Sequence record: NC_055708.1
Direction: 5' to 3' (one strand)
DNA length: 64,000 nucleotides
From: Enterobacteria phage ATK47
Part shown: positions 1,121-56,591 of the stretch, piece after piece
How the letters are laid out: each line of letters opens with the position of its first letter
Position numbering within the stretch: the first letter of the stretch is position 1
The notes under the pieces: model-generated
Told to the model about the DNA's origin: nothing
Database searches by the model: none
What the model saw: the letters and a program-made list of their open reading frames with translations, nothing else
Translations under genes and position numbers: made by a program

Positions 1121-2689
1121 TTAAATTCCTTTAACGTAGACGCGTCTAAAGTAAGCGTTCTTACCAAGGCTGTTCAGGATAGACGGCATACCGGACTGGA
1201 TGCGAGCACCTGGAGCCTGCAGGGAACTTTCAGCAAACGGGTTAACACCGATACCGTAACGAGTTTTAAAGCCCATTACCGGCTGGAAGTTCTTAGGATC
1301 GGAACCACGCAGTGGGGTAAGTGCAACGTAAGGAGCATAGTAAATACCTGCATCCATTTCGTTAGCGCCTTTGTAACCAACGGTGAAGTAATCCTGTTTA
1401 GCATACTGGTCGATGTATACGCGGTATTTACCACCAAGTACACCGGCAAATACAGACTTAGTAGTGTCGGTATTAAAACCAGAAGCCAGACCCTGTGCAG
1501 CGTAAGAAATACCAGTATCAACTGAAGCCAGTACGTTAACTACGTTACGGGAAGCGATAATGAAGTTACCTTCACCACGACCGGTTTGACGAGCAATTTC
1601 AACTGCTTCTTTATCAATCTGGAACAACAGAGATTTAAAGCTTTCACCGGCCCAACGAGCACCACGGATATCAATCGGGTCCTGGAAGTCAAATACACCA
1701 GCTTTAGAACCCGGAGTCAGGGTCATACCAGATTTACCAACCTGTGCCGAGTAGTTAATCCAATCAACAACTTCACGGTTGATTTCTAGCATAATTTCTG
1801 TAGCCAGAATACCGCTCAGTTCAGCATCAGCATCCATACCGTGTACTGCACGGAGGTCTTGTGCCAATTCGATGGAGTAAGCAGCTTTCAGCTGGCGAGA
1901 TTTAGCTTCGATAACTTGTTTATCGATACGGAAGCCCATTTCGTTCCACGGGTTGTCGGTAGAACCGTTGAAACCTTCCTGGAGTTCAGCGATAGAAGTA
2001 GCCATACCTTCAGCGATTTCTACCAGTGCACCAGCTTCCATTTGTTTCTTAACTTCTGCATCTAATTTAGCTGCATCAGTTGCACCAGAATCAAGTGTTA
2101 CGATAGCAGAAGCTTGCAGATATACAGTACCAGTTTCTTGGAAGAAGTGAGTATAGATATCACCTACAACGGTAGTAGTGTCAGCAGCCAGAGCTGGGAA
2201 TTTCTTAGCAGCACCCTGACCAGAGAACATCGCGTCCGGGGCATACATCGGATGGAAAGCTTCTTTAGCGCCAGCAGCGATAGGGTCTTTACCATATACT
2301 GCACGGAGAGCAAATACCTGACCGGTAGGGCTGTTCATAGGCTGAACACCACAAATATCAAAAGCGATCAGATTAGGAATAGCACGACGAACCATACCCA
2401 TAACTGCCGGCCCAATTTGGGTTACTGCACCAGAGGTTTGACCTGCTGCGATGTTCTGAGCATTATAACCGTGGTCACCACCAATTTCAGCTTCGGTCAA
2501 GAAAGAACCAAATGCCTGAGCGATTTTCTCGTCTTTATATTCAGGGGATACTTCGAAATCTTTTTCCTGGTTTTCGAAGATTTTAGCGATAATAGCCTGC
2601 TTGCTATTAGCGATTTCCGGCAGGCCTTCACCTTCCAGCAGTTCTTTCCATTTGTCTACGAGCTGAGCTTTAGTTTTGATAGTAGTCAT
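1121..2689 (-). CDS. 23: major capsid protein gp23
   Basis: 521-aa product near-identical over full length to T4 gp23 as recalled (MTTIKTKA...FRRVYVKGI). Confidence 0.97.
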   Translation of the reverse strand: MTTIKTKAQLVDKWKELLEGEGLPEIANSKQAIIAKIFENQEKDFEVSPEYKDEKIAQAFGSFLTEAEIGGDHGYNAQNIAAGQTSGAVTQIGPAVMGMVRRAIPNLIAFDICGVQPMNSPTGQVFALRAVYGKDPIAAGAKEAFHPMYAPDAMFSGQGAAKKFPALAADTTTVVGDIYTHFFQETGTVYLQASAIVTLDSGATDAAKLDAEVKKQMEAGALVEIAEGMATSIAELQEGFNGSTDNPWNEMGFRIDKQVIEAKSRQLKAAYSIELAQDLRAVHGMDADAELSGILATEIMLEINREVVDWINYSAQVGKSGMTLTPGSKAGVFDFQDPIDIRGARWAGESFKSLLFQIDKEAVEIARQTGRGEGNFIIASRNVVNVLASVDTGISYAAQGLASGFNTDTTKSVFAGVLGGKYRVYIDQYAKQDYFTVGYKGANEMDAGIYYAPYVALTPLRGSDPKNFQPVMGFKTRYGIGVNPFAESSLQAPGARIQSGMPSILNSLGKNAYFRRVYVKGI

Positions 2690-2706
2690 TTGTGTTAACC
2701 TTTAAA

Positions 2707-3519
2707 TTAGAAACGAGATGCGACTTTCGCATATAAACTTACATTAGAATTCTGTTCTACCTGAGTTGTGGTAGTGTCAACTGCTTCGGCAACAAAATTA
2801 AGACCGGCAGCGTCATTGTCAACTGTATTTATACTTTCGGTAATAGCGGCTTCTTCTTTAGTAGAACCTTTAACCATTTCTACAATAGCAGTTAACTTAG
2901 TACCAAATGCGTCAGAATAATCCATACCTTCAACCAGGCCAATAACTTTTTCTTTCTGAGATTCAGTCAGGTCTTTTACGCTTTCATTAATAGCGGTTTC
3001 ACGCTGAACGTAATTGATATATGCATCACGTTTGGTAACTTCTTCGAACAAACGAGCGGTTTCTTCTTTATGTTCGGCCAGCTCTTCTTCCATTTCTGCT
3101 ACAACATCTACAGATTCTTCTGGAACAACAACGTTATGTTCAACAAACAGTTCTTTCAGACCACCAAGCATGGATTCGAACAAATCAGCTTTAATGCCTT
3201 TATCAACTGCGATTTGGTTTTCTGCGAGCCATTCTTTTGCAAGATGGTCTAGGAATTTAGAAGCTTGTTCAGCCAATTTTTTATCAGCTTTCTCTTCAGC
3301 ATCTTCTTTGGCCTTTTCAACTTCTTCTTCAGCCTTTTCGGCGATGGCTTTGATATGAGATTCAGCCAGTTTGACTGCTTCCTGCTTAACGGTGGCTTCG
3401 AATACAGTGCTGAAATTAGCTTTAACGTCCGGAGACAGTTCTACTGATTCGAAAACACTATTAAGAGCAACTGAAGTCTCGATGTTCTGAGCTTCTTTCA
3501 AAAGTTGTTCTTTGATCAT
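2707..3519 (-). CDS. 22: prohead core scaffold protein gp22
   Basis: 270 aa, acidic helical protein, immediately upstream of 23; size and synteny as T4 gp22. Confidence 0.85.
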   Translation of the reverse strand: MIKEQLLKEAQNIETSVALNSVFESVELSPDVKANFSTVFEATVKQEAVKLAESHIKAIAEKAEEEVEKAKEDAEEKADKKLAEQASKFLDHLAKEWLAENQIAVDKGIKADLFESMLGGLKELFVEHNVVVPEESVDVVAEMEEELAEHKEETARLFEEVTKRDAYINYVQRETAINESVKDLTESQKEKVIGLVEGMDYSDAFGTKLTAIVEMVKGSTKEEAAITESINTVDNDAAGLNFVAEAVDTTTTQVEQNSNVSLYAKVASRF

Positions 3520-4864: not shown

Positions 4865-6435
4865 TAAAAATCCTCTTGTTCTTGGTCGGGGTCTTGGAAA
4901 CGAGCCTCTTTCGACTCTTCTTCAATTTGCTTAGCCTCTTGTTCAATTTCCTCGTCAGACATCTGAAGAATATCTTTCATAGCTGTTCTGTGAGAAATAT
5001 ATTTACCAATAAATGGTTCGGCCATCTGAAGCATATTAATGCGACGCTCCAGAATCTCAGCATCCTTTAATTCCGAGAAATAACTATCCCGATGAAATTT
5101 TATCTTAATATTATTTATTTCATCATTCCACTCATCTTCTGTAATAATTCCTTTAAGAATTAAATTAGTTTTAAGCGGGTCTAGGAATATCTCTTCAAAT
5201 TTATGTTGCAGCTCACGAATAAATTTACCAAATGACAATTCATCTCGTGTAATAGAAGTACCAGCATCAAACTGTATACCACCTTGGTCACTTGGAATAC
5301 GGGTAATAGGAATACGTAAAGCCATATAAAGCGCATTACGGAACCAACGTACATCTTCCATATTTCCAGTATTATCTGCACCTGGTAATGTGTCAACTTC
5401 TGTTACTGCTTTACCATCACGTCGTTGTAACCAATAATCTTCGGTCATCGACATAATATGCTGCTGGTTTTTAATCTTGCCTGTAGTAGCATCATATGCA
5501 ATACGGTTTTTCATCGTATTCATAACATGCTGCATATGTTCTGCTGCTTTTCTTGAAGGCATATTACCTGTATCAACGTACCATACACGACGATCGGGAG
5601 CACGAGTAATACGATAAATTACGACGGCATCTTCAAGAAGTTTTAATTGGTTCGCCGGCTTAATAGCCCGATGCAAATAACCGATGATATTTTTACCACA
5701 ACAATCAACTAAACCAGAATGGGCATAAACAATCGCGGCTTTAGGGATTTTTATTTTTGTGCCAGCTTCATATATGCGGCCATCACAAGCATAAGATTCG
5801 TGTGATGTGTCATAAATGAAATATTCTTTATAACCCTTGACTATTTTAACACCGGCTTCAGTGGTTGTAATAACTTCACGGACATATTGAACTTGACGTG
5901 GGTCTAAACGACGAAGCTCTTTAATACCTTCTTTAGGGCGTTTAGGGTCAATAATTTTATGGAAGAAAATTCGAGAATCTACATACCAACGCCTAAAATG
6001 GTCTGAACCTTTACGTTGGAAAGATAAATGATTCAACACTTCGTTAAATTCATCCAACATCATTGATTTTATATTTGGACTAAATTTTGTGTTGTCTAAA
6101 TTTATAGAAACGACTTCTGTGTCATCTTCATATACGATAGCATCAGAAACTATTTCAGAGACTGCATTATCCACTTCATAGTTCGTCATCAAATTTCTAT
6201 ACGTATCGATTAATTCACGCGTTGATTTGAGCCCTGGTTCTTGGCTACCGAACATTCTCTGAAACATAGCATTATATGTTTGCTGTGCTTCATTTTCAGA
6301 TACTTCGTATTCTTTAGCACCGTCGTCTAATTTTGGTGAGGTGATCGATTCTAAATTTTCTTTTTCTTGGTCTTTGTAATCACGTTCGTCCATTTTTGCC
6401 CATGGAGCAAACAAACTTAAGATATTAAATTTCAT
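4864..6435 (-). CDS. 20: portal vertex protein gp20
   Basis: 523 aa; size and synteny as T4 gp20. Confidence 0.9.
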
Positions 6436-31768: not shown

Positions 31769-32503
31769 ATGGAGCTAATCTTTTTAAGTGGCATCAAACG
31801 TAGTGGTAAAGACACTACTGCTGATTACATCAATTCAAACTTTAAATCCGTAAAATACCAATTAGCATATCCAATTAAAGACGCTCTAGCAATAGCCTGG
31901 GGACGTAGGCATGCTGAAAATCCTGATGTATTCACAGAGTTGAAATACGAATACTTTGAAGGCATTGGATACGACCGTGAAACACCATTAAATCTCAATA
32001 AGTTGGATGTTATTGAATTATTGGAAGAAGCGCTAATTTATTTGCAAAGTCAATATTTACCGATTAATAATGTTAAAGTATTATCATCGTTAGAAGGTGG
32101 ATATTCGTATCTAGATATTAAACCATATGAAGCCCTGCGTGAAGCTATAAATAATATCAACGACACATGGTCAATCCGCCGTCTTATGCAAGCCCTCGGT
32201 ACGGATGTTGTCGTTAATTTATTTGACCGTATGTATTGGGTTAAACTTTTTGCATTAAACTATATGGATTATATTGGAAGTGATTTCGATTACTATGTTG
32301 TGACCGATACACGCCAAGTCCATGAAATGGAAACCGCTAGAGCGATGGGTGCTACAGTTATTCATGTGGTTCGCTCTGGTACGGAATCCACCGATAAACA
32401 TATTACAGAAGCTGGGTTGCCTATTGAAGAAGGTGATTTAGTTATTACAAACGACGGCTCTTTAGAAGAGCTTTATTCTAAAATTGAAACAATCTTAAGG
32501 TAA
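31769..32503 (+). CDS. 1: deoxynucleoside monophosphate kinase gp1
   Basis: 244 aa; P-loop GIKRSGKDTTAD; close to recalled T4 gp1. Confidence 0.9.
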   Translation: MELIFLSGIKRSGKDTTADYINSNFKSVKYQLAYPIKDALAIAWGRRHAENPDVFTELKYEYFEGIGYDRETPLNLNKLDVIELLEEALIYLQSQYLPINNVKVLSSLEGGYSYLDIKPYEALREAINNINDTWSIRRLMQALGTDVVVNLFDRMYWVKLFALNYMDYIGSDFDYYVVTDTRQVHEMETARAMGATVIHVVRSGTESTDKHITEAGLPIEEGDLVITNDGSLEELYSKIETILR

Positions 32504-32507
32504 TAAA

Positions 32508-33193
<686 letters not shown>

Positions 33194-33205
33194 TTTTACA
33201 AAACA

Positions 33206-33235
33206 GTTTACATAAGGATGATGGCGTGTTACTAT
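33206..33235 (+). promoter_or_regulatory. T4-type early promoter within palindrome
   Basis: GTTTAC, 18 nt, TACTAT; GGATGAT/ATCATCC inverted repeat flanks the -10. Confidence 0.6.
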
Positions 33236-33269
33236 CATCCTATCAAATAAACGACCTCAAGGAAATAAA

Positions 33270-33557
33270 ATGAAAACCTATAAAGAATTTATATCACCTG
33301 ATGCTAACGTTTCTACTCTGACCGAAGCGACCCTTACTTCCGAAGTTATTAAAGCAAATAAAGGACGTGAGGGTAAACCAATGATTAGTCTGGTTGACGG
33401 CGAAGAAGTAAAAGGTACTGTTTACTTAGGGGATGGATGGTCTGCTAAGAAAGATGGCGCTACTATTGTTATCTCTCCGGCTGAAGAGACTGCACTGTTT
33501 AAAGCTAAGCATATTTCTGTAGCTCAGCTTAAAATTATTGCAAAAACCCTTCTGTAA
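33270..33557 (+). CDS. internal protein with capsid-targeting leader (ipI position)
   Basis: 95 aa; N-terminus MKTYKEFI matches T4 internal-protein CTS consensus MKTYQEFIAE; adjacent to 57B as T4 ipI. Confidence 0.75.
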   Translation: MKTYKEFISPDANVSTLTEATLTSEVIKANKGREGKPMISLVDGEEVKGTVYLGDGWSAKKDGATIVISPAEETALFKAKHISVAQLKIIAKTLL

Positions 33558-33560
33558 GTA

Positions 33561-33590
33561 GTTTACATGCTGATAGGATTATGGTATAGT
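33561..33590 (+). promoter_or_regulatory. T4-type early promoter within palindrome
   Basis: GTTTAC, 18 nt, TATAGT; ATAGGA...TCCTAT inverted repeat. Confidence 0.6.
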
Positions 33591-33620
33591 AGTCCTATCA
33601 AAATTAATTAGGAAAATAAA

Positions 33621-33929
33621 ATGAAAACTTTCAAAGAATTTATCAATGAAGCGGCTGCACCAAAGACATTCGTTATTAATACTCAAGCGAGTCTTGATGA
33701 TGAGTACGCGGATGCAATTCTGAGGTCACTTGCTAAGAACGGCGTTGAAGTATCTGCATCAGACTTTAAGAAAGGGTCTTCCGAGATGTTTATTTCTATA
33801 GTTAAAGGATCTAAAGCTAAGATTAAATCATCATTCGGAGTTGCTCGTACCGATCAAATCGACAGTCATGACTTTAAACAAACCGGCGTTAAACGGCAGA
33901 ATACGATTGCATCACGCGGAATAAAATAG
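33621..33929 (+). CDS. internal protein-like (CTS leader)
   Basis: 102 aa; N-terminus MKTFKEFINE with I-N-E site resembling prohead protease motif. Confidence 0.7.
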   Translation: MKTFKEFINEAAAPKTFVINTQASLDDEYADAILRSLAKNGVEVSASDFKKGSSEMFISIVKGSKAKIKSSFGVARTDQIDSHDFKQTGVKRQNTIASRGIK

Positions 33930-33940
33930 TTTATAAAACC

Positions 33941-33970
33941 GTTTACTTTTAGATAGGGTAGTGATACTAT
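33941..33970 (+). promoter_or_regulatory. T4-type early promoter within palindrome
   Basis: GTTTAC, 18 nt, TG-a-TACTAT; ATAGGGTA...TACCCTAT inverted repeat. Confidence 0.6.
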
Positions 33971-33998
33971 TACCCTATCAACTACTGAGGAGAATAAA

Positions 33999-34184
33999 AT
34001 GAAACGCGCTGAACTGATTCGTAATGTTGCTGTAGTAATTGCTTCAATGGCTTTTAGTTTTTCGATGTTTGTAGGATTCATTTGTGGACTACTGACAACA
34101 ACTGAAAATTCTATCTCATTGGTAGTAGCATTTCTAATCGGTTTAATCGCTATTGTTATGGATAAAATTGCAAAAGGTGAGTAA
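33999..34184 (+). CDS. small membrane protein (61 aa, two hydrophobic helices)
   Basis: SD GAGGAGA; hydrophobic segments VAVVIASMAFSFSMFVGFICGLL and LVVAFLIGLIAIV. Confidence 0.55.
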   Translation: MKRAELIRNVAVVIASMAFSFSMFVGFICGLLTTTENSISLVVAFLIGLIAIVMDKIAKGE

Positions 34185-34185
34185 A

Positions 34186-34548
34186 ATGAAATATCACGTA
34201 TATGCGGATTTTGAAGCAAATCCTTCTAAAGACCCGGATTGTCGTTTATTCCGTAATCCGTTTGATTCAGCAGCTCAAGCATGGGCCTGGATTAAAACTT
34301 GTACTCCTTCTTACACTTTCTTTGAAGTGGTAGATGATAATGGTGTTTTGCATCCAGAACCTACAGAAACTATTAATTTCCTTCTGTTTGCTGGTTATGA
34401 CTGTTATCCTCTTGGTGGTATTGACGACCTTGTTGCTACAGGAAAAACTGTTGAAGCTCTTCGCGAAATTTATAAAAACGCAGAAGAAAATTTTGACTGG
34501 TATCATATTGTTGATGCTCATACCTTTGAAGTGGTGGAACATTCATGA
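34186..34548 (+). CDS. hypothetical protein (120 aa)
   Basis: ATG 34186 with SD AGGTGAG; ORF in operon context. Confidence 0.55.
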   Translation: MKYHVYADFEANPSKDPDCRLFRNPFDSAAQAWAWIKTCTPSYTFFEVVDDNGVLHPEPTETINFLLFAGYDCYPLGGIDDLVATGKTVEALREIYKNAEENFDWYHIVDAHTFEVVEHS

Positions 34549-34835
34549 TTCTTTATGCTAAGGTAAAATCCGTTGAGAATGGATATGAAAGCGATCAACG
34601 TGCAGCTAAAGCACTAGTCGATTACTATGGTATTTTGACCCACTTTGAAGTTGAAAAGGTTTACGTCGACCGTTCATCTTCACAGGTTAAATTACTTTGG
34701 GAAGACCGCAAATTTAATAGTGTGAACTTTGATTTCTTTATTGAAACAGAAAAAGGTCCTCTTGAATATGATATTTTCAAGAATCCTTTAAATCTTGAAT
34801 GTATTGAGTATAATTACATTAATATGGTACGGTGA
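34545..34835 (+). CDS. hypothetical protein (96 aa)
   Basis: Overlapping ATGA junction with upstream gene. Confidence 0.55.
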   Translation: MILYAKVKSVENGYESDQRAAKALVDYYGILTHFEVEKVYVDRSSSQVKLLWEDRKFNSVNFDFFIETEKGPLEYDIFKNPLNLECIEYNYINMVR

Positions 34836-34839
34836 GTAA

Positions 34840-35355
34840 ATGAATATTTGTTTAGGCAGTACAATTCCTAAGGGTTATGTAATTGATGTCACTACCTATG
34901 AAAATGACGGGGACAACTATAAAACCAAAACATTGTTTGAAGTGGAAGAGCATGAGCTCCAACAGTTTAAATATCTCTTGAAGAAATTTAAGAGTCGTCA
35001 TTCCAGCACTAAAGCTGAACGTTACTGTGGTAATACACCATTCAGTGACTGCTCGCTTATTATCTACGAATATCTGGTTGAAGGGCTGTTCTCAGACCAA
35101 CTCCGACCAGAATTTATTAAAAAGGTCTTTGGCATCGAAGTAGACCTTGGTGATAAATCTGAAGAAGACGAAGCCCGCGTATTCGACCTGTTCTTTGTGA
35201 AAGGCGATGAGATATCTCAAGGACTTATTGATATTCTTGGCTATGCTTCTGAATACTATGATTACGATTTCTTGCGTGTAGTTGAACGTGTCGAATTTGC
35301 TTATATTGAAGAAGAAATTGTTTTGCCAACTGTTAAAATGATTGATTTGCTTTAA
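34840..35355 (+). CDS. hypothetical protein (171 aa)
   Basis: SD GGTGAG; acidic ORF. Confidence 0.55.
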   Translation: MNICLGSTIPKGYVIDVTTYENDGDNYKTKTLFEVEEHELQQFKYLLKKFKSRHSSTKAERYCGNTPFSDCSLIIYEYLVEGLFSDQLRPEFIKKVFGIEVDLGDKSEEDEARVFDLFFVKGDEISQGLIDILGYASEYYDYDFLRVVERVEFAYIEEEIVLPTVKMIDLL

Positions 35356-35434
35356 GAATTATGTGTTATTATTAATTCATACCCTCTATTACCAAAGGTG
35401 CTCTAAAGTGCCTTTCATAATAGAAAGTTATTAA

Positions 35435-35509
35435 GGCCCTGTAGCTCAATGGGAGAGCTGTCAGCTCATAACTGATAGGTAGCTGGATCGAAACCAGCCA
35501 GGGTCACCA
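35435..35509 (+). tRNA. tRNA, anticodon CAT (Met, or Ile2 if lysidine-modified as in T4 tRNA-Ile)
   Basis: Cloverleaf folded by hand: acceptor GGCCCTG/CAGGGTC, D-stem GCTC/GAGC, anticodon loop CTCATAA, T-stem GCTGG/CCAGC, encoded CCA. Confidence 0.8.
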
Positions 35510-35512
35510 ATT

Positions 35513-35589
<77 letters not shown>

Positions 35590-35607
35590 ACTTCAAGTGA
35601 GGAAAAT

Positions 35608-35952
35608 ATGAAAGGTAATATTTATCTGGTAGTTCATGATTTAACGTTTTATTTTAACGAACAGGATACAGTTATTTCCGACCGGTTGATTAATTCATTA
35701 TATCAACACGCTGATTACGTTTATTTCCAAAATGAATTTGGCCATTGGAAGTTTCTTAAAAACCGTTCCGGGTTAACTAGTTTTGAATACTTTGACCGTA
35801 AAGACCTTTTAAACGAAATCCCATTGCAACATCGGTTCCAGAAACGCGAATCACTATACTATTGTCGCCATATACCAAATGCTGAATGTGTTTATGAAGC
35901 GATTAATCTATGGCGTCGGCGTCGAGAGCAAATTGATGATATGCCAAAATAA
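35608..35952 (+). CDS. hypothetical protein (114 aa) downstream of tRNAs
   Basis: SD GAGGAAA 4 nt from tRNA end, ATG 35608; could alternatively be non-coding. Confidence 0.45.
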   Translation: MKGNIYLVVHDLTFYFNEQDTVISDRLINSLYQHADYVYFQNEFGHWKFLKNRSGLTSFEYFDRKDLLNEIPLQHRFQKRESLYYCRHIPNAECVYEAINLWRRRREQIDDMPK

Positions 35953-36264
35953 GAAGCCGGGTCGCTACCGGCAAGTCGTCGGACTGATGTTCCCTGAGTA
36001 AGGACTGGTCTTAATAAATCTTTATGATTTGTTAATATCCCCTTACATCACAGCAGAAACGGCGCACAAAATTATCGATTCGAGGAAATATCTTTGCCGT
36101 AATCCGAGTAGCGTTTTTGACGGAACGTTCGGATATGGTCGAGATATGGCCTTTTAAAAATATTGAGTAGCGTCAACTGCTTAATAACCAGGTTCAAATC
36201 CCGGCGTTTCGTACAAACACTTGCCTTAGCAGGTGGAACCCCGACAAGGTTGCCGCAAGGCTTA
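35953..36264 (+). ncRNA. candidate stable structured RNA (position analogous to T4 species 1/2 RNAs)
   Basis: About 310 nt without ORF, GC-balanced with several local inverted repeats and a T-loop-like GGTTCAAATCC, ending at a terminator. Confidence 0.3.
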
Positions 36265-36290
36265 GCCCCTTCCGAAAGGTTGGGGCTTTT
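36265..36290 (+). terminator. rho-independent terminator
   Basis: GCCCC...GGGGC stem with GAAA loop followed by TTTT. Confidence 0.65.
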
Positions 36291-36335
36291 GGCATAATAA
36301 TAAATAGATAAGTTAATTAACTTAGGAAAAGCAAC

Positions 36336-36800
36336 ATGAAATCATACGCTGAATTTTTGACTGAACAATCTAGTTCAGATGTAAAAGCCGCTGCGATTGC
36401 AGCAATTCAAGCAGGTAAATATTCTTACAAAGACGCCTCTGATGAAGAACGTTTCCGTTTTATTAGAGATTTTAAAGCCGAAGGTTTTACTAATGCTAAT
36501 ACTGTTAGCCGAGTTTTTAAAAGCCTAGCTGCATCAGGTGAATTGTTCCAGAAAGCTACAGGTAAAGCACCTGCGCCAAAAACAGACCCTAAAGCAGCTC
36601 AAGAAAAAAATATCGCCAAAGGAATTATTTCTAAGTATGAAGCAATTCTTAAAGAGCTTTTAGTAATCAAAACAGAAGGCCAGAAACTGGCACGAGCACA
36701 TAGCTTCAAAGATAATCCTCACGCTCATAGCCTTGAGTATGTTGAAGATATCCAAAAACTTATTAAAGACCGTATCTGGTCTGCTAAACAAATTAAATAA
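36336..36800 (+). CDS. internal protein-like (CTS leader)
   Basis: 154 aa; N-terminus MKSYAEFLTE matches CTS pattern. Confidence 0.7.
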   Translation: MKSYAEFLTEQSSSDVKAAAIAAIQAGKYSYKDASDEERFRFIRDFKAEGFTNANTVSRVFKSLAASGELFQKATGKAPAPKTDPKAAQEKNIAKGIISKYEAILKELLVIKTEGQKLARAHSFKDNPHAHSLEYVEDIQKLIKDRIWSAKQIK

Positions 36801-36806
36801 TAGAAT

Positions 36807-36835
36807 GCCCCTTCCTTATGGTTGGGGCCTTTTGG
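36807..36835 (+). terminator. rho-independent terminator (repeat copy 2)
   Basis: GCCCCTTCCTTATGGTTGGGGC followed by CTTTTGG. Confidence 0.65.
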
Positions 36836-36866
36836 TATCTAGGGCATAAAAATATTTCATAAAGAT

Positions 36867-36895
36867 GTTTACTTCTTCCCTAGATGTGTTACTAT
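36867..36895 (+). promoter_or_regulatory. T4-type early promoter
   Basis: GTTTAC, 17 nt, TG-t-TACTAT. Confidence 0.6.
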
Positions 36896-36923
36896 AGATT
36901 TATCAACCACAGAGGAAAATATT

Positions 36924-37427
36924 ATGAGTCTTTACACTGAACTGAATAAAAAATCTGAAGAATCTGCTGAAACTATTTTTAAAAACGTGCAAAAGCGTAT
37001 TTTGGAAAAGATGTACGATGCAGCATCTAAAGGTGAAAAATCTTGCCGGTTTCCGATGAGGTGTTCTTCTGATTTATGCGCAAATACTATTGAATGGCTG
37101 GAAAGTGAAGGTCTTACGGTAGAGAAAAACCCGGCGACTTCTATTGACAGTGAATCATATATTAGTATTTCTTGGGATAAATCAAGGGTAGAAGAGAAAG
37201 ATGGTGATTGGGTTGTAGATGTTAAAACTTCTGATGGTGGACGTTCTGTTGAAGTTTCAGCTGTAGTTAAAGGTACCCACGGACAAAGGACTTGGGGTTG
37301 GGGTGGTGAAGAAAAAGAAATTGTTCTTAGTGTGATTGCAAGGTCTACTAGCAATAAAATTGCCCAGAGCATCATCTATGCTGCATGTATCGAAGCTGGA
37401 AAAATTTGCAAAATTAAAAATAAATGA
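36924..37427 (+). CDS. hypothetical protein (167 aa)
   Basis: SD GAGGAAA; ORF. Confidence 0.6.
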   Translation: MSLYTELNKKSEESAETIFKNVQKRILEKMYDAASKGEKSCRFPMRCSSDLCANTIEWLESEGLTVEKNPATSIDSESYISISWDKSRVEEKDGDWVVDVKTSDGGRSVEVSAVVKGTHGQRTWGWGGEEKEIVLSVIARSTSNKIAQSIIYAACIEAGKICKIKNK

Positions 37428-40526: not shown

Positions 40527-40556
40527 GTTTACAACAAGATAGGGCTATGTTATAGT
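40527..40556 (+). promoter_or_regulatory. T4-type early promoter within palindrome
   Basis: GTTTAC, 18 nt, TG-t-TATAGT; ATAGGGCTA...TAGTCCTAT inverted repeat. Confidence 0.6.
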
Positions 40557-40584
40557 AGTCCTATCAAAACAAATGGAGTCCACA

Positions 40585-41809: not shown

Positions 41810-41822
41810 TTTCACAAAACAG

Positions 41823-41851
41823 TTTACAAGGTCTGTAGTTGTTGATACTAT
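41823..41851 (+). promoter_or_regulatory. T4-type early promoter within palindrome
   Basis: GTTTAC, 17 nt, TG-a-TACTAT; GGTCT...AGACC inverted repeat. Confidence 0.6.
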
Positions 41852-41889
41852 AGACCTATCAAAACAAATGAGTGAATGGAGATATAAAA

Positions 41890-43866: not shown

Positions 43867-44314
43867 GAAAAATAAAGTGAAAGAGCTATCAGCCGGTATT
43901 ATTTTCCTTACCGAAGATAAAGAGTTATTCATGGGGCGTGTAACTGGTTCTCGTCCTAAAGGTGCATTAACTCATCGGTGGGATATTCCTAAAGGCCGTG
44001 TCGAACCTGGCGAATCTCCTATTGAAGCCGCTATTCGTGAATGCGAAGAAGAAACTGGGTTTACACAATATGACCCTGCCTTCCTGAAAGACCTAGGTGA
44101 ACATCATTACTCAGACAATAAGAATATTCATCTGTTCCTATATACCATCCCTGTAGAGCACGAGCAATTCAGAAACAGTGTTTGTAATTCCTATCATACA
44201 TTCCAAGACGGACGACAGATTCCTGAATTTGATGCATTCGCTTTAATTAAACCTTCTCAATGGGAATATGTAATGGGCAAATCGTTATATAAGGTGCTCA
44301 CTACCCTCCTATAA
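43856..44314 (+). CDS. nudE: Nudix hydrolase
   Basis: Nudix box GRVEPGESPIEAAIRECEEETGF; immediately upstream of lysozyme as T4 e.1. Confidence 0.85.
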   Translation: MMSKKNKVKELSAGIIFLTEDKELFMGRVTGSRPKGALTHRWDIPKGRVEPGESPIEAAIRECEEETGFTQYDPAFLKDLGEHHYSDNKNIHLFLYTIPVEHEQFRNSVCNSYHTFQDGRQIPEFDAFALIKPSQWEYVMGKSLYKVLTTLL

Positions 44315-44320
44315 GTAATA

Positions 44321-44348
44321 AATACCTCCTATAAACGTGGGAGGTATT
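44321..44348 (+). promoter_or_regulatory. SD-sequestering hairpin with late-promoter-like element for lysozyme gene
   Basis: AATACCTCC / GGAGGTATT 9-bp stem pairs the SD; AATAAATA (44317-44324) and TATAAACG in the loop region. Confidence 0.6.
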
Positions 44349-44837
44349 ATGAATATATTTGAAATGCTTCGTAATGACGAAGGTCTTAGACTGACTTTAT
44401 ACAAAGACACTGAAGGCTTTTGGACGATTGGCATAGGCCATTTAGTAACAAAGAACCCGTCTTTAGCCGTAGCTAAAGCTGAACTTGACAGAATGATCGG
44501 CCGTAAATGCAACGGTACAATTACCCTTGATGAGGCTGAAAAGCTATTTAATGAAGACGTTGATAAAGCTGTCCGCGGAATCTTGGGTAATGCTAAACTT
44601 AAACCGGTATATGATTCTTTAGATGCAGTTCGTCGGTGTGCATTGGTCAATATGGTCTTCCAAATGGGTGTAGCAGGAGTCGCCGGTTTTACTAATTCTC
44701 TTCGTATGCTTAAACAGAAACGTTGGGATGAAGCGGCAGTAAATCTAGCTCAATCTAAATGGTATCGTCAGACACCTAATCGCGCGAAACGCGTAATCTC
44801 AACATTTAAAACAGGAACTTGGAAAGCGTATATATGA
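44349..44837 (+). CDS. e: lysozyme (endolysin)
   Basis: [31 protein letters not shown]; about 85 percent identical to T4 lysozyme as recalled. Confidence 0.97.
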
Positions 44838-45115
44838 AAACATATAGTGAATTTTTATCAGAATCTATTCTTAACGAAGCTACTGACACATTTGCAACTA
44901 AGCTAGGTGCAGCTTTGGTTGAAGCTGAAAGTCTATTAGCACGTATTTCTGAACTTGCTAGTAAGATAGATACTCGCAAATTTGAACGTACCAGCGATAT
45001 CGCTAAGCTTGAAGCCTTGTTGCGTATGTGCGATAAACCAGAAGAAATCGCTAAGAACGGCTCGCTGATGAAACAACGTCTTGAAAAATATATTTCAGGC
45101 GCTTCAGAAAAATAG
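44834..45115 (+). CDS. internal protein-like (CTS leader)
   Basis: 93 aa from ATG 44834; N-terminus [15 protein letters not shown]. Confidence 0.7.
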
Positions 45116-45116
45116 T

Positions 45117-45146
45117 GTTTACTTCCTCCAAGGGTTTTGATACTAT
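45117..45146 (+). promoter_or_regulatory. T4-type early promoter for denV, spanned by anti-SD hairpin
   Basis: GTTTAC, 18 nt, TG-a-TACTAT; TTCCTCCAAG (45123-45132) is perfect complement of SD region CTTGGAGGAA (45161-45170). Confidence 0.6.
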
Positions 45147-45173
45147 ACATTCATCAACTACTTGGAGGAAATT

Positions 45174-45587
45174 ATGACTCGTATCAATTTAACACTTGTT
45201 TCTGAACTGTCCGACCAACATCTTATGGCTGAGTATCGTGAATTACCACGCGTATTTGGTGCAGTCCGTAAACATGTTCAAAACGGTAAACGTGTAAAGG
45301 ATTTTAAAATCTCTCCAACATTTATCTTAGGCACAGGTCACGTAACATTCTTTTACGACAAACTCGAATTTTTACGTTTACGTCAAATCGAGCTAATCGC
45401 TGAATGTTTGAAACGTGGTTTCAAAATCAAGGACACGACAGTCCAGGATATTTCCGACATCCCTGCCGAATTTCGTAATAATTATGTCCCGTCCGAAGCG
45501 TCCATTGCGATAAGTCAAGCACGCTTAGATGAAAAAATTGCTCAACGTCCGACTTGGTACAAATACTATGGTAAATCAATTTACTAA
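45174..45587 (+). CDS. denV: endonuclease V (pyrimidine dimer DNA glycosylase)
   Basis: [34 protein letters not shown]; near-identical to recalled T4 endo V. Confidence 0.97.
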
Positions 45588-45594
45588 GGAAAAA

Positions 45595-45924
45595 ATGAAA
45601 ACATATCAAGAGTTTATCACTGAAGTTACATTATCTGCGGAACAGAAAGCTGCTATCGAAGAAAGTAAAAATCCCAAAGTAACATATAAAGTAAATAGTA
45701 AAGGCGTTTTTGATGGCTTGGTTCAAGACCCTGAATTGAAAAAAGCTCTTTCTAAAACTAATGCGTACTTTGCTCCTAAATTTAACACAGCCGGTGTACT
45801 TATTGGATTGGATGTATTCAACTCTAAAGGTGTTCTATCTAATGCCTTTGGCTATGCCGCTAACAAAATTACCAAAGCCGCATGGGAATCCAATACCAAA
45901 CAAGCTCAAAAGCCTAGAGTATAA
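45595..45924 (+). CDS. internal protein-like (CTS leader)
   Basis: 109 aa from ATG 45595; N-terminus MKTYQEFITE. Confidence 0.7.
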   Translation: MKTYQEFITEVTLSAEQKAAIEESKNPKVTYKVNSKGVFDGLVQDPELKKALSKTNAYFAPKFNTAGVLIGLDVFNSKGVLSNAFGYAANKITKAAWESNTKQAQKPRV

Positions 45925-46030
45925 TTCTTGTCTAATAAAGGGAAACGCAACCTCTCCTTATGAACGTCGAGTCCTCTGAGTGATGTACCTTTTCCAACCT
46001 GTAATAAGGTCGAGCGCAATGCGGTAATGG

Positions 46031-46060
46031 GTTTACATAGCGAGTCGAAGGACCTAACAT
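46031..46060 (+). promoter_or_regulatory. possible early promoter (weak -10)
   Basis: GTTTAC, 18 nt, TAACAT. Confidence 0.3.
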
Positions 46061-46096
46061 GTGCCACGGAATGGCCCAAACCTTAAGAGAAATAAT

Positions 46097-46636
46097 ATGA
46101 GAACATTTTTAACTGGACCTTATCTATCCCTGATGAATGCTTTTACACACCATTCTGATGCTAGAGTAGAAGAAATTTGTAAGAACGGTTATATCCCACC
46201 ATTTGAAGACGTACTCAAGCAGTACTGTACACTTCGTTTAGACGGCGGCAGACAATCAGGTAAATCAATTGCTGTGACTAACTTTGCTGCTAATTGGCTG
46301 TACGATGGTGGAACAGTTATTATTCTTTCTAATACTTCAGCTTATGCTAAAATTTCTGCTGGCAACATTGAAAAAGAATTTTCTCGTTATTCTAGCGACA
46401 ATATTCGATTCCGTTTATTTACTGATTCTGTCCGTAGTTTTATTGGCAATGAAGGTTCTAAATTCCGTGGATTAACGCTTTCTCGTATTCTGTATATAAT
46501 TGACGAGCCTATTAAAGCTCCTGATATGGATAAGATTTACAATGTCCATATTAAAACAGTACAGTACTGCTGCAAAAGCAAATATTGCATCGGCGGTAAT
46601 TCTCGTCCTCAATTTTTTGTGATTGGAATGCAATGA
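46097..46636 (+). CDS. small P-loop NTPase-like protein (179 aa)
   Basis: Walker A-like GGRQSGKS and Walker B-like ILYIIDEP. Confidence 0.5.
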   Translation: MRTFLTGPYLSLMNAFTHHSDARVEEICKNGYIPPFEDVLKQYCTLRLDGGRQSGKSIAVTNFAANWLYDGGTVIILSNTSAYAKISAGNIEKEFSRYSSDNIRFRLFTDSVRSFIGNEGSKFRGLTLSRILYIIDEPIKAPDMDKIYNVHIKTVQYCCKSKYCIGGNSRPQFFVIGMQ

Positions 46637-46941
46637 TGACCACTATTGAAGTTTTTGAATATTGTTATAACAGCCCAGTATGCAATAAAAGGGCTCTTGT
46701 AGAAAATTATGAGATTTACCATTTTAAACCTAAACGATATCGTTTGACTAAAGGCCCGTTCGCAGGGCAGCAGGTTCTTTGTACTGCTCCTAATGCACGG
46801 TTGATGACTAGTATTCCGCATTTCAAAATGGAATTTATTGATGGGCCATTTAAGGGATTAATCACTCAAAGTTTAATGGCGTTTAATTCCGACCCATTTT
46901 TGATTAAAGAAAAATCTTGGATAAATTTATTTTCTAATTGA
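46633..46941 (+). CDS. hypothetical protein (102 aa)
   Basis: ATGA overlap with upstream P-loop gene. Confidence 0.5.
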   Translation: MMTTIEVFEYCYNSPVCNKRALVENYEIYHFKPKRYRLTKGPFAGQQVLCTAPNARLMTSIPHFKMEFIDGPFKGLITQSLMAFNSDPFLIKEKSWINLFSN

Positions 46942-56535: not shown

Positions 56536-56564
56536 GTTTACAAGGTCTATGGTTATGTTATTAT
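56536..56564 (+). promoter_or_regulatory. T4-type early promoter within palindrome
   Basis: GTTTAC, 17 nt, TG-t-TATTAT; GGTCTAT...ATAGACC inverted repeat. Confidence 0.6.
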
Positions 56565-56591
56565 AGACCTATCAACTACTGGAGGTAAAAC

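Follow-up and report, generated by a model that had tools for sequence, protein, structure and literature searches.

In Enterobacteria phage ATK47, the interval between gene 57B and trna.4 is very probably the first of the two internal-protein (IP) loci of an RB69-like, T-even Mosigvirus, and comprises two self-contained cassettes, ipI followed by ip7. No evidence contradicts these gene identities. Neither gene is new to the literature or to GenBank annotation, and the same holds for the leaders, the promoter-hairpin repeats and the variable nature of the locus. The first-pass annotation of this DNA had described two capsid-targeted internal proteins where T4 has one. That reading is partly supported: it was right in kind, and wrong in holding that both proteins are unlike IPI and in implying that they are new.

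Organization of the locus

The window, that is, the whole 64-kb stretch of ATK47 DNA that was analysed, contains two adjacent plus-strand ORFs within 33188-33998. They occupy 33270-33557 (95 aa) and 33621-33929 (102 aa), where the first-pass annotation had placed its two genes. The gene order is 4 / 2 / 3 / 1 / 57A / 57B / ipI / ip7 / trna.4 / trna.3 / trna.2. Apart from one extra gene, this order is that of T4: the 57B-trna.4 interval of T4 holds ipI alone, in agreement with the initial description of a single T4 gene at this position. According to a profile match, the neighbouring gene 57B encodes Acb1, an anti-CBASS nuclease. The features of the locus are as follows.

32738-33193: gene 57B, upstream flank of the IP array
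33188-33269, plus strand: cassette 1, upstream of ipI, comprising an AT-rich stretch, a -35 element, a hairpin, a -10 element, a CCTATCA box and the Shine-Dalgarno sequence AAGGAAA
33206-33212, plus strand: -35 element GTTTACA of cassette 1
33215-33241, plus strand: hairpin AGGATGATGG/CTATCATCCT of cassette 1, enclosing the -10 element TACTAT (33230-33235)
33270-33557, plus strand: ipI, precursor of internal protein I, 95 aa, starting MKTYKEFISPDANVSTLTE...
33270-33326, plus strand: leader and propeptide of ipI, residues 1-19, with predicted gp21 cleavage after LTE19
33327-33554, plus strand: mature IPI*, 76 aa, 8.0 kDa, pI 9.0, predicted N-terminus ATLTSEVIK...
33558-33620, plus strand: cassette 2, upstream of ip7, with -35 element GTTTACA (33561-33567) and Shine-Dalgarno sequence TAGGAAAA
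33571-33600, plus strand: hairpin TGATAGGATTA/TAGTCCTATCA of cassette 2, overlapping the TG-extended -10 element TATAGT (33585-33590)
33621-33929, plus strand: ip7, precursor of internal head protein Ip7, 102 aa
33621-33650, plus strand: leader of ip7, residues 1-10 (MKTFKEFINE), with predicted cleavage after INE10
From the residue after E10: mature Ip7, 92 aa, 9.9 kDa, pI 9.7, predicted N-terminus AAAPKTFVINTQ...
33930-33998, plus strand: cassette 3, upstream of trna.4 and bounding the IP array, with -35 element GTTTACT (33941) and -10 element TACTAT
33952-33979, plus strand: hairpin GATAGGGTA/TACCCTATC of cassette 3, an inverted repeat
33999-34184: trna.4, downstream flank of the IP array

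A 117-aa minus-strand ORF (33866-34219) overlaps the ip7 ORF.

Nucleotides 32700-34250 match Enterobacteria phage ATK48 (KT184310; genus Mosigvirus, RB69 group) at 100% identity, and LF82-41, SHSML-52-1 and Shf125875 at 98-99.9%. Over 44300-46800, the match to ATK48 is again 100%, and the identity of the window to this phage refers to these two compared stretches. The exact arrangement seen here is common to approximately 30 sequenced phages.

The first gene is ipI

The two proteins were compared with the T4 internal proteins, as the first-pass annotation had proposed. Along its full length of 95 residues, the product of the first ORF shares 88% identity with T4 IPI. It matches the Pfam family PF11634 (IPI_T4) with an E-value of 1.4e-50 and a score of 169.6 bits (cut-off, 25), with residues 20-95 spanning profile positions 1-76 of 76, and also matches phrog_4363. 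Its mature part is identical to the solved structure of mature IPI* (PDB 2JUB) at 72/76 positions. The protein is 99% identical to RB69 IPI, the sole difference being in the propeptide, such that the mature parts are identical at 76/76 positions. IPI* sequences were found in 290 phage records, and in 278 of these the identity is ≥90%.

The remaining features of the gene are also those of T4 ipI: it lies between 57B and trna.4 and encodes 95 aa, of which 19 form a propeptide that ends in (I/L)TE and 76 the mature part. LTE19 of the ATK47 protein aligns with ITE19 of T4 IPI. Thus, the profile, the leader and propeptide sequence and the genomic position all place this gene in the IPI_T4 family. 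Between the ATK47 and T4 genes, 28 codon differences are synonymous and 11 are non-synonymous. Judged by its sequence, the first gene is ipI, a clear orthologue of T4 IPI. The initial description had taken the mature parts of both proteins to be unlike T4 IPI; the Pfam, 2JUB and RB69 comparisons overturn this for the first protein, whose mature region is orthologous to that of T4, the outcome that the initial description had itself named as refuting it, and rule out its being a non-IPI effector.

The mature part differs from that of T4 IPI by four substitutions (I to V, A to V, H to Q and N to T). The same four have been described for RB69 IPI, and the question has been raised whether they change the specificity of the protein, for instance with respect to the UTI89 enzyme (PMC6024577). 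The phages themselves differ in DNA modification, cytosines being arabinosylated in the Mosigvirus host phage and glucosylated in T4 (PMC6024577, PMC13390438). T4 IPI* blocks the CT596-type GmrSD, a modification-dependent type IV restriction nuclease (PMC3012670, PMC4437046, PMC6024577, PMC12373910), and a single statement in PMC6024577 has RB69 IPI protecting infection from GmrSD-type enzymes. By analogy with the T4 protein, IPI* of ATK47 would inhibit CT596-type GmrSD nucleases.

The second gene is ip7

The product of the second ORF matches phrog_2667, annotated 'internal head protein', with an E-value of 3.8e-41, its residues 1-102 aligning to profile positions 1-101 of 101. In phage Shf125875, the same gene (98% identity) is labelled 'internal head protein 7; similar to RB15 Ip7 CAA84464'. 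We take the RB15 entry to derive from a 1994 study of T-even polymorphism. Ip7 is annotated in Shf125875, T2, CC31, VR20 and other phages, and the source names in the protein database agree ('Ip7 protein'). Using tblastn, homologues were found in 282 phage records. Identity to the ATK47 protein is 92% in T2 ('internal head protein 7'), 92% in CC31 (gene ip7), 66% in RB69 and approximately 50% in JS98, VR5, VR7, VR20 ('ip7') and Klebsiella phages. The ATK47 protein agrees with those of T2 and CC31 in its 10-residue leader and in its length, and nothing of substance differs. On sequence grounds, the second gene is therefore Ip7, a named and widely annotated T-even internal head protein, and the novelty implied for it by the first-pass annotation is not borne out. 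The record of ATK48 lacks an ip7 annotation despite the identical sequence; this is an annotation gap and not a discovery.

For this protein, the described lack of resemblance to T4 IPI stands. In BLASTP and profile comparisons, it had no similarity to T4 IPI, IPII or IPIII past the first ∼11 residues, and when profiles were compared, the Ip7 family aligned with T4 IPII, and with another leader-bearing protein of the window (109 aa), in the leader region alone. An exhaustive HMMER search of 1.8 billion representative proteins recovered only the Ip7 family itself, in three clusters at 50% identity. We therefore consider the family to be narrow and seemingly restricted to the Tevenvirinae. A repeat-protein match in that search (E = 1e-3) was marginal and was treated as chance. 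Matches of the Ip7 sequence to the PDB were likewise at chance level (designed ankyrin repeats and a GGDEF protein, E ≥ 0.008).

Between ip7 alleles, the ratios of synonymous to non-synonymous changes were 24:8, 13:8 and 7:2. This synonymous excess indicates that ip7 is a real gene under purifying selection and, together with its conservation across genera, led us to reject a chance ORF. Consistent with membership of the T-even internal proteins, the gene has the leader sequence and lies in a variable IP locus behind an early promoter and stem-loop. Like IPII and IPIII, whose leader is MKTYQEFIAE, Ip7 has a 10-residue leader, cleavage predicted after E10, and a small, basic product encoded in a variable IP locus (PMC12373910, PMC9026906). 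By contrast, it has no likeness to either T4 protein past the leader. Virion proteomics reports naming Ip7 were not found in the accessible literature, where searches for this protein brought up unrelated papers only.

To obtain a view of the fold, we examined an AlphaFold model of Ip7 built from a 29-sequence alignment (pLDDT of 74). The modelled core, residues 13-80, is arranged beta-alpha-beta-beta-alpha-beta with a pLDDT of 86-90 and contains the conserved motifs KGSxAKI and F/W-GV. In the model, this core is a generic ferredoxin-like domain that carries no functional signature and is unrelated to IPI*. The C-terminal tail, residues 81-102, is basic and of low model confidence, yet has a conserved R-Q/M-N-T-I/L motif; it is predicted to be flexible.

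Leaders and predicted packaging

As first described, the two proteins start with the capsid-targeting sequences MKTYKEFI (IPI) and MKTFKEFINE (Ip7). The leader motif is rare: a six-frame scan of the 64 kb gave just five ORFs of ≥30 aa that start with it. The I/L-x-E sites also described are present, each protein having a single [LIVM]-x-E site, LTE at residue 19 in IPI and INE at residue 10 in Ip7. In the T4 IPIII leader, targeting depends on residues 4 and 7, and processing on residues 8 and 10 (PMC9026906). At these positions, Ip7 has F4, F7, I8 and E10, as expected of a capsid-targeting sequence, and its leader is identical to that of IPII at 8 of 11 residues. IPI has Y4, F7, I8 and P10, with its sole LxE site at residue 19, as in T4 IPI.

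In T4, the mature, basic internal proteins stay with the DNA in hundreds of copies and are then injected (PMC3012670, PMC4437046). By analogy, the leaders of the ATK47 precursors, with aromatic residues at positions 4 and 7, would direct them into the prohead scaffolding core. The prohead protease gp21 would then cut the leader after Glu19 in IPI (LTE|A) and after Glu10 in Ip7 (INE|A), and the small, basic mature proteins would stay with the packaged DNA and be injected together with it. Most likely, then, the products of both genes are packed into the head and enter the cell with the DNA, as their leaders and the T4 precedent suggest.

Promoter-hairpin cassettes

Each gene has its own palindromic early promoter, as the first-pass annotation had noted, with GTTTAC and TAnnnT elements and a hairpin. 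The start coordinate given there, 33206, coincides exactly with the first -35 element. In cassette 1, the promoter scan matched 33207-33235 with a TG extension, and the hairpin folds at -13.2 kcal/mol (z = -3.93 against dinucleotide shuffles). The cassette can be aligned with those upstream of T4 ipI and of the first RB69 IP gene. The promoter of cassette 2 is the top match of the region, at 10/12; an inverted repeat was detected, and the hairpin folds at -15.4 kcal/mol (z = -3.84 on the same basis). Cassette 3, whose hairpin folds at -16.4 kcal/mol (z = -4.57, again against dinucleotide shuffles), can be aligned with the T4 cassette upstream of trna.4.

All three cassettes are built from the T4-early -35 element GTTTAC, a hairpin of 10-12 bp lying over the -10 element (TAnnnT), the CCTATCA box and a Shine-Dalgarno sequence. 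In the window, six copies of the composite motif GTTTAC-N15-19-TANNNT-N0-12-CCTATCA were counted where 0.01 would be expected by chance, and three of the six are consecutive, at 33206, 33561 and 33941. Together with the rarity of the leader motif, this count indicates that the features described are not a chance pattern. A late promoter (TATAAATA) was not found directly upstream of either ipI or ip7, the nearest plus-strand copy being at 32146, inside gene 1. We therefore only infer that enough protein is synthesized late, at the time of prohead assembly.

The cassettes resemble the PeSL cassettes of RB49/phi1 and other T4-like phages in that a promoter and stem-loop are repeated before small accessory genes in hyperplastic regions, and in the modular shuffling through recombination between copies that has been proposed for them (Arbiol et al. 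2010, PMC2839356; PMC4122927). They differ in their elements: PeSLs have a sigma-70-like promoter and a G/C-rich polyG...polyC stem, whereas the elements described here have a GTTTAC -35 and AT-rich stems. The IP-locus elements have been described as analogues, not homologues, of PeSLs, with T4 early promoters and weaker, AT-rich stem-loops (PMC2839356). The stem composition in ATK47 agrees with that description. The elements are thus not PeSLs in the sense of Arbiol et al. 2010, their stems being of the form GATAGG.../...CCTATC and folding at -13 to -16 kcal/mol.

Variation and shuffling of the locus

In RB69, of the same genus, the order is 57B / ip7-like / ipI / trna.4, and in T2 it is 57B / another leader-bearing ORF / ip7. 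The CC31 locus holds ip7 alone and the T4 locus ipI alone. In Gaprivervirus VR20 and Jiaodavirus FRZ284, an Ip7 homologue (∼50% identity) is in the other IP locus, where it adjoins vs.8; this second locus also holds genes annotated ip5 and ip10.

Relative to RB69 DNA, the flanks of the array are 98.5% and 98.8% identical and the ipI cassette 95.6%, whereas ip7 is just 68% identical. By contrast, ip7 of the window is 86-89% identical to the T2 and CC31 genes. The ATK47 allele is thus T2/CC31-like and not RB69-like (66% at the protein level), and it follows ipI, whereas in RB69 it precedes it. The homology breakpoints fall in the promoter-hairpin repeats and in the first 25-30 nt of the leader coding sequence. 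These stretches, namely the ∼85-bp promoter-hairpin cassettes plus the first 25-30 nt of leader coding sequence, would be a likely substrate for homologous recombination, by which IP ORFs could be inserted, deleted and swapped.

More than 30 IP variants are known (PMC2839356). According to that paper, Repoila et al. (1994) saw promoter/stem-loop elements at both variable IP loci, and tandem, shuffled IP cassettes with promoter-hairpin repeats, as the same account presents them, go back to that study and were discussed again in 2010 (PMC2839356). The two-gene arrangement of ATK47 is one state of this known shuffling system.

Candidate roles of Ip7

By analogy with Ip1, Ip2 and Ip3, the most likely role of Ip7 is that of a second anti-defence protein that is injected and has a target other than that of IPI. 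Ip1, Ip2 and Ip3 each block one GmrSD variant with no cross-protection, T4 IPII and IPIII being injected inhibitors of GmrSD-ECOR21 and GmrSD-ECOR17, respectively, and at least 10 further Ips have been cited (PMC12373910). The suggestion in the first-pass annotation of an injected effector with a different target is, for Ip7, plausible and agrees with this literature (PMC12373910). Since each of Ip1-3 was recently paired with one GmrSD variant, Ip7 is the obvious next candidate for a screen of this type, and it is a widespread internal protein, the 282 phage records belonging to several Tevenvirinae genera.

The T2 phage bears on the identity of the target. Its deposited genome encodes Ip7 (92% identical) and lacks IPI, yet T2 is restricted by the GmrSD enzymes of CT596, ECOR21, ECOR17 and UTI89 (PMC4437046, PMC12373910). 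These four enzymes, which include the best-characterised candidates, are therefore unlikely targets of Ip7, with the qualifications that the T2 grown in laboratories may not match the deposited genome and that enzyme dosage matters. For the same reason, we have not filed Ip7 as a GmrSD inhibitor. We tentatively propose that Ip7 might be an injected inhibitor of a defence that has no known phage counter-measure, either an uncharacterised GmrSD clade or an early-acting non-GmrSD system, and that it might dock via the motif of its flexible tail. If this proposal is true, tandem IPI and Ip7 would constitute a two-enzyme anti-restriction kit for this Mosigvirus. The search for the target is in any event narrowed: four GmrSD enzymes are unlikely, the ferredoxin-like core is unlike IPI*, and the conserved, flexible tail provides a testable interaction element.

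A narrower version, in which Ip7 inhibits a defence other than GmrSD, such as another early-acting nuclease or a DNA sensor, is unlikely. The restriction of Ip7-bearing T2 by four different GmrSD enzymes is consistent with it (PMC4437046, PMC12373910), as is the range of carriers, which include glucosylated T2, arabinosylated Mosigvirus and phages of Klebsiella and Enterobacter (PMC13390438). Because these carriers differ in DNA modification, the target need not be a nuclease that reads one sugar. The anti-CBASS product of the neighbouring 57B further indicates that the region already has anti-defence genes of different kinds. However, all three internal proteins with known targets act on GmrSD-family enzymes, and an untested GmrSD variant is the simplest guess, since the family is very diverse and many of its clades are untested (PMC12373910).

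It is improbable that Ip7 has no specific host target and is instead a basic filler of the head core or DNA that aids charge neutralisation, core assembly or ejection. A similar role was long discussed for IPII and IPIII. The physical properties of mature Ip7 fit such a role, the protein being small and basic (15 K+R versus 10 D+E), as does the generic fold that carries no functional signature. In T4 heads, internal-protein lysines contact DNA phosphates, and IPIII mutants have head-assembly aberrations (PMC3012670, PMC9026906); the continued restriction of Ip7-bearing T2 by four GmrSD enzymes also accords with a filler (PMC4437046, PMC12373910). Nevertheless, IPII and IPIII, formerly viewed likewise, are now recognized as specific GmrSD inhibitors (PMC12373910). 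Moreover, Ip7 is patchy among T-even phages and moves between loci, which is the pattern of an accessory arms-race gene and not of a structural requirement, and its conserved, non-compositional motifs in the core and tail suggest a specific interaction surface.

Finally, the idea that both genes are new leader-bearing effectors that are unrelated to IPI and replace ipI at this locus can practically be dismissed: the leaders and locus position are as described and Ip7 is indeed unrelated to IPI past the leader, but the first protein is 88% identical to T4 IPI with a mature part identical to that of RB69 IPI, and the second is the catalogued Ip7.

Annotation and placement of ip7

In the GenBank record of ATK48 (KT184310), which is 100% identical to the window over the stretches compared, there is a CDS for ipI and none for ip7, the latter gene (window 33621-33929) occupying positions 5422-5730 of the ATK48 locus stretch. 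By contrast, ip7 is annotated in the records of Shf125875, LF82-41, T2 and CC31. Comparison with other genomes located the following counterparts (positions are those of the locus stretches compared).

RB69, 2501-3161: stretch with an ip7 allele and ipI
VR20 (Gaprivervirus), 1801-2100: Ip7 homologue, second-locus position
FRZ284 (Jiaodavirus), 1801-2106: Ip7 homologue, second-locus position

A divergent ip7 allele (66% identity) precedes ipI in RB69, whereas ip7 comes after ipI in the window. Gaprivervirus and Jiaodavirus carry their Ip7 homologue in the e/denV/vs.8 locus, beside genes annotated ip5 and ip10. The RB69 gene order and the placement in these two genera therefore indicate that IP cassettes move within and between both loci.

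The second IP locus

In the window, the second locus consists of two ORFs flanking denV.

44834-45115, plus strand: 93-aa ORF, phrog_3499 ("internal head protein")
45595-45924, plus strand: 109-aa ORF with a leader, phrog_3966 ("unknown function")

The 93-aa ORF shares 48% identity with the T2 ORF lying between 57B and ip7, so members of one cassette family occur at each of the IP loci. A perfect capsid-targeting leader, MKTYQEFITE, opens the 109-aa ORF, which related genomes annotate as hypothetical. Certain relatives within Mosigvirus, such as APCEc01, differ from the window in having ~660 bp of additional sequence between denV and the gene for the 109-aa ORF; this stretch holds one more "internal head protein".

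Gene 57B

32738-33193, plus strand: gene 57B, directly upstream of ipI

The 57B product matched the Pfam family Acb1 (anti-CBASS nuclease, PF23474; E = 1.3e-58), in agreement with the annotation of phage Mizar. Based on this similarity, 57B is likely an anti-CBASS gene. A probable anti-CBASS gene is therefore the direct neighbour of the genes for a GmrSD inhibitor and Ip7.

Promoters

The promoter-hairpin cassette (GTTTAC ... TAnnnT ... CCTATCA) occurs in three more copies elsewhere in the window, presumably preceding other early accessory genes.

40527-40566, plus strand: cassette copy
41822-41861, plus strand: cassette copy
56536-56574, plus strand: cassette copy
32146-32153, plus strand: T4 late-promoter motif TATAAATA

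Neither ipI nor ip7 has a late promoter directly ahead of it; the closest TATAAATA motif on the coding strand falls within gene 1, upstream of 57A. To supply IPI and Ip7 late, when the prohead is loaded, either read-through of the hairpins would have to occur or protein made early would have to persist.

A leader-like ORF past the tRNA genes

35435-35509, plus strand: tRNA-Met(CAU) gene
35513-35589, plus strand: tRNA-Arg(UCU) gene
36336-36800, plus strand: 154-aa ORF with a leader-like start, phrog_2280 match

A search of positions 33000-37000 yielded these two tRNA genes, as compared to the eight-gene cluster of T4; the same pair is annotated at the corresponding position in RB69 and Shf125875. 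The 154-aa ORF sits past this pair, outside either classical IP locus, and the GTTTAC/hairpin cassette is absent upstream of it. Of the 510 phage records that contain it, the 25 listed all name it "hypothetical protein" or give no product name. The family phrog_2280 is itself of "unknown function". The N-terminus, MKSYAEFLTE followed by Q, resembles a capsid-targeting leader with an LTE10 cleavage motif, and the predicted mature part has a pI of 9.6. Judging from these sequence features, the product may be an unrecognised internal protein.
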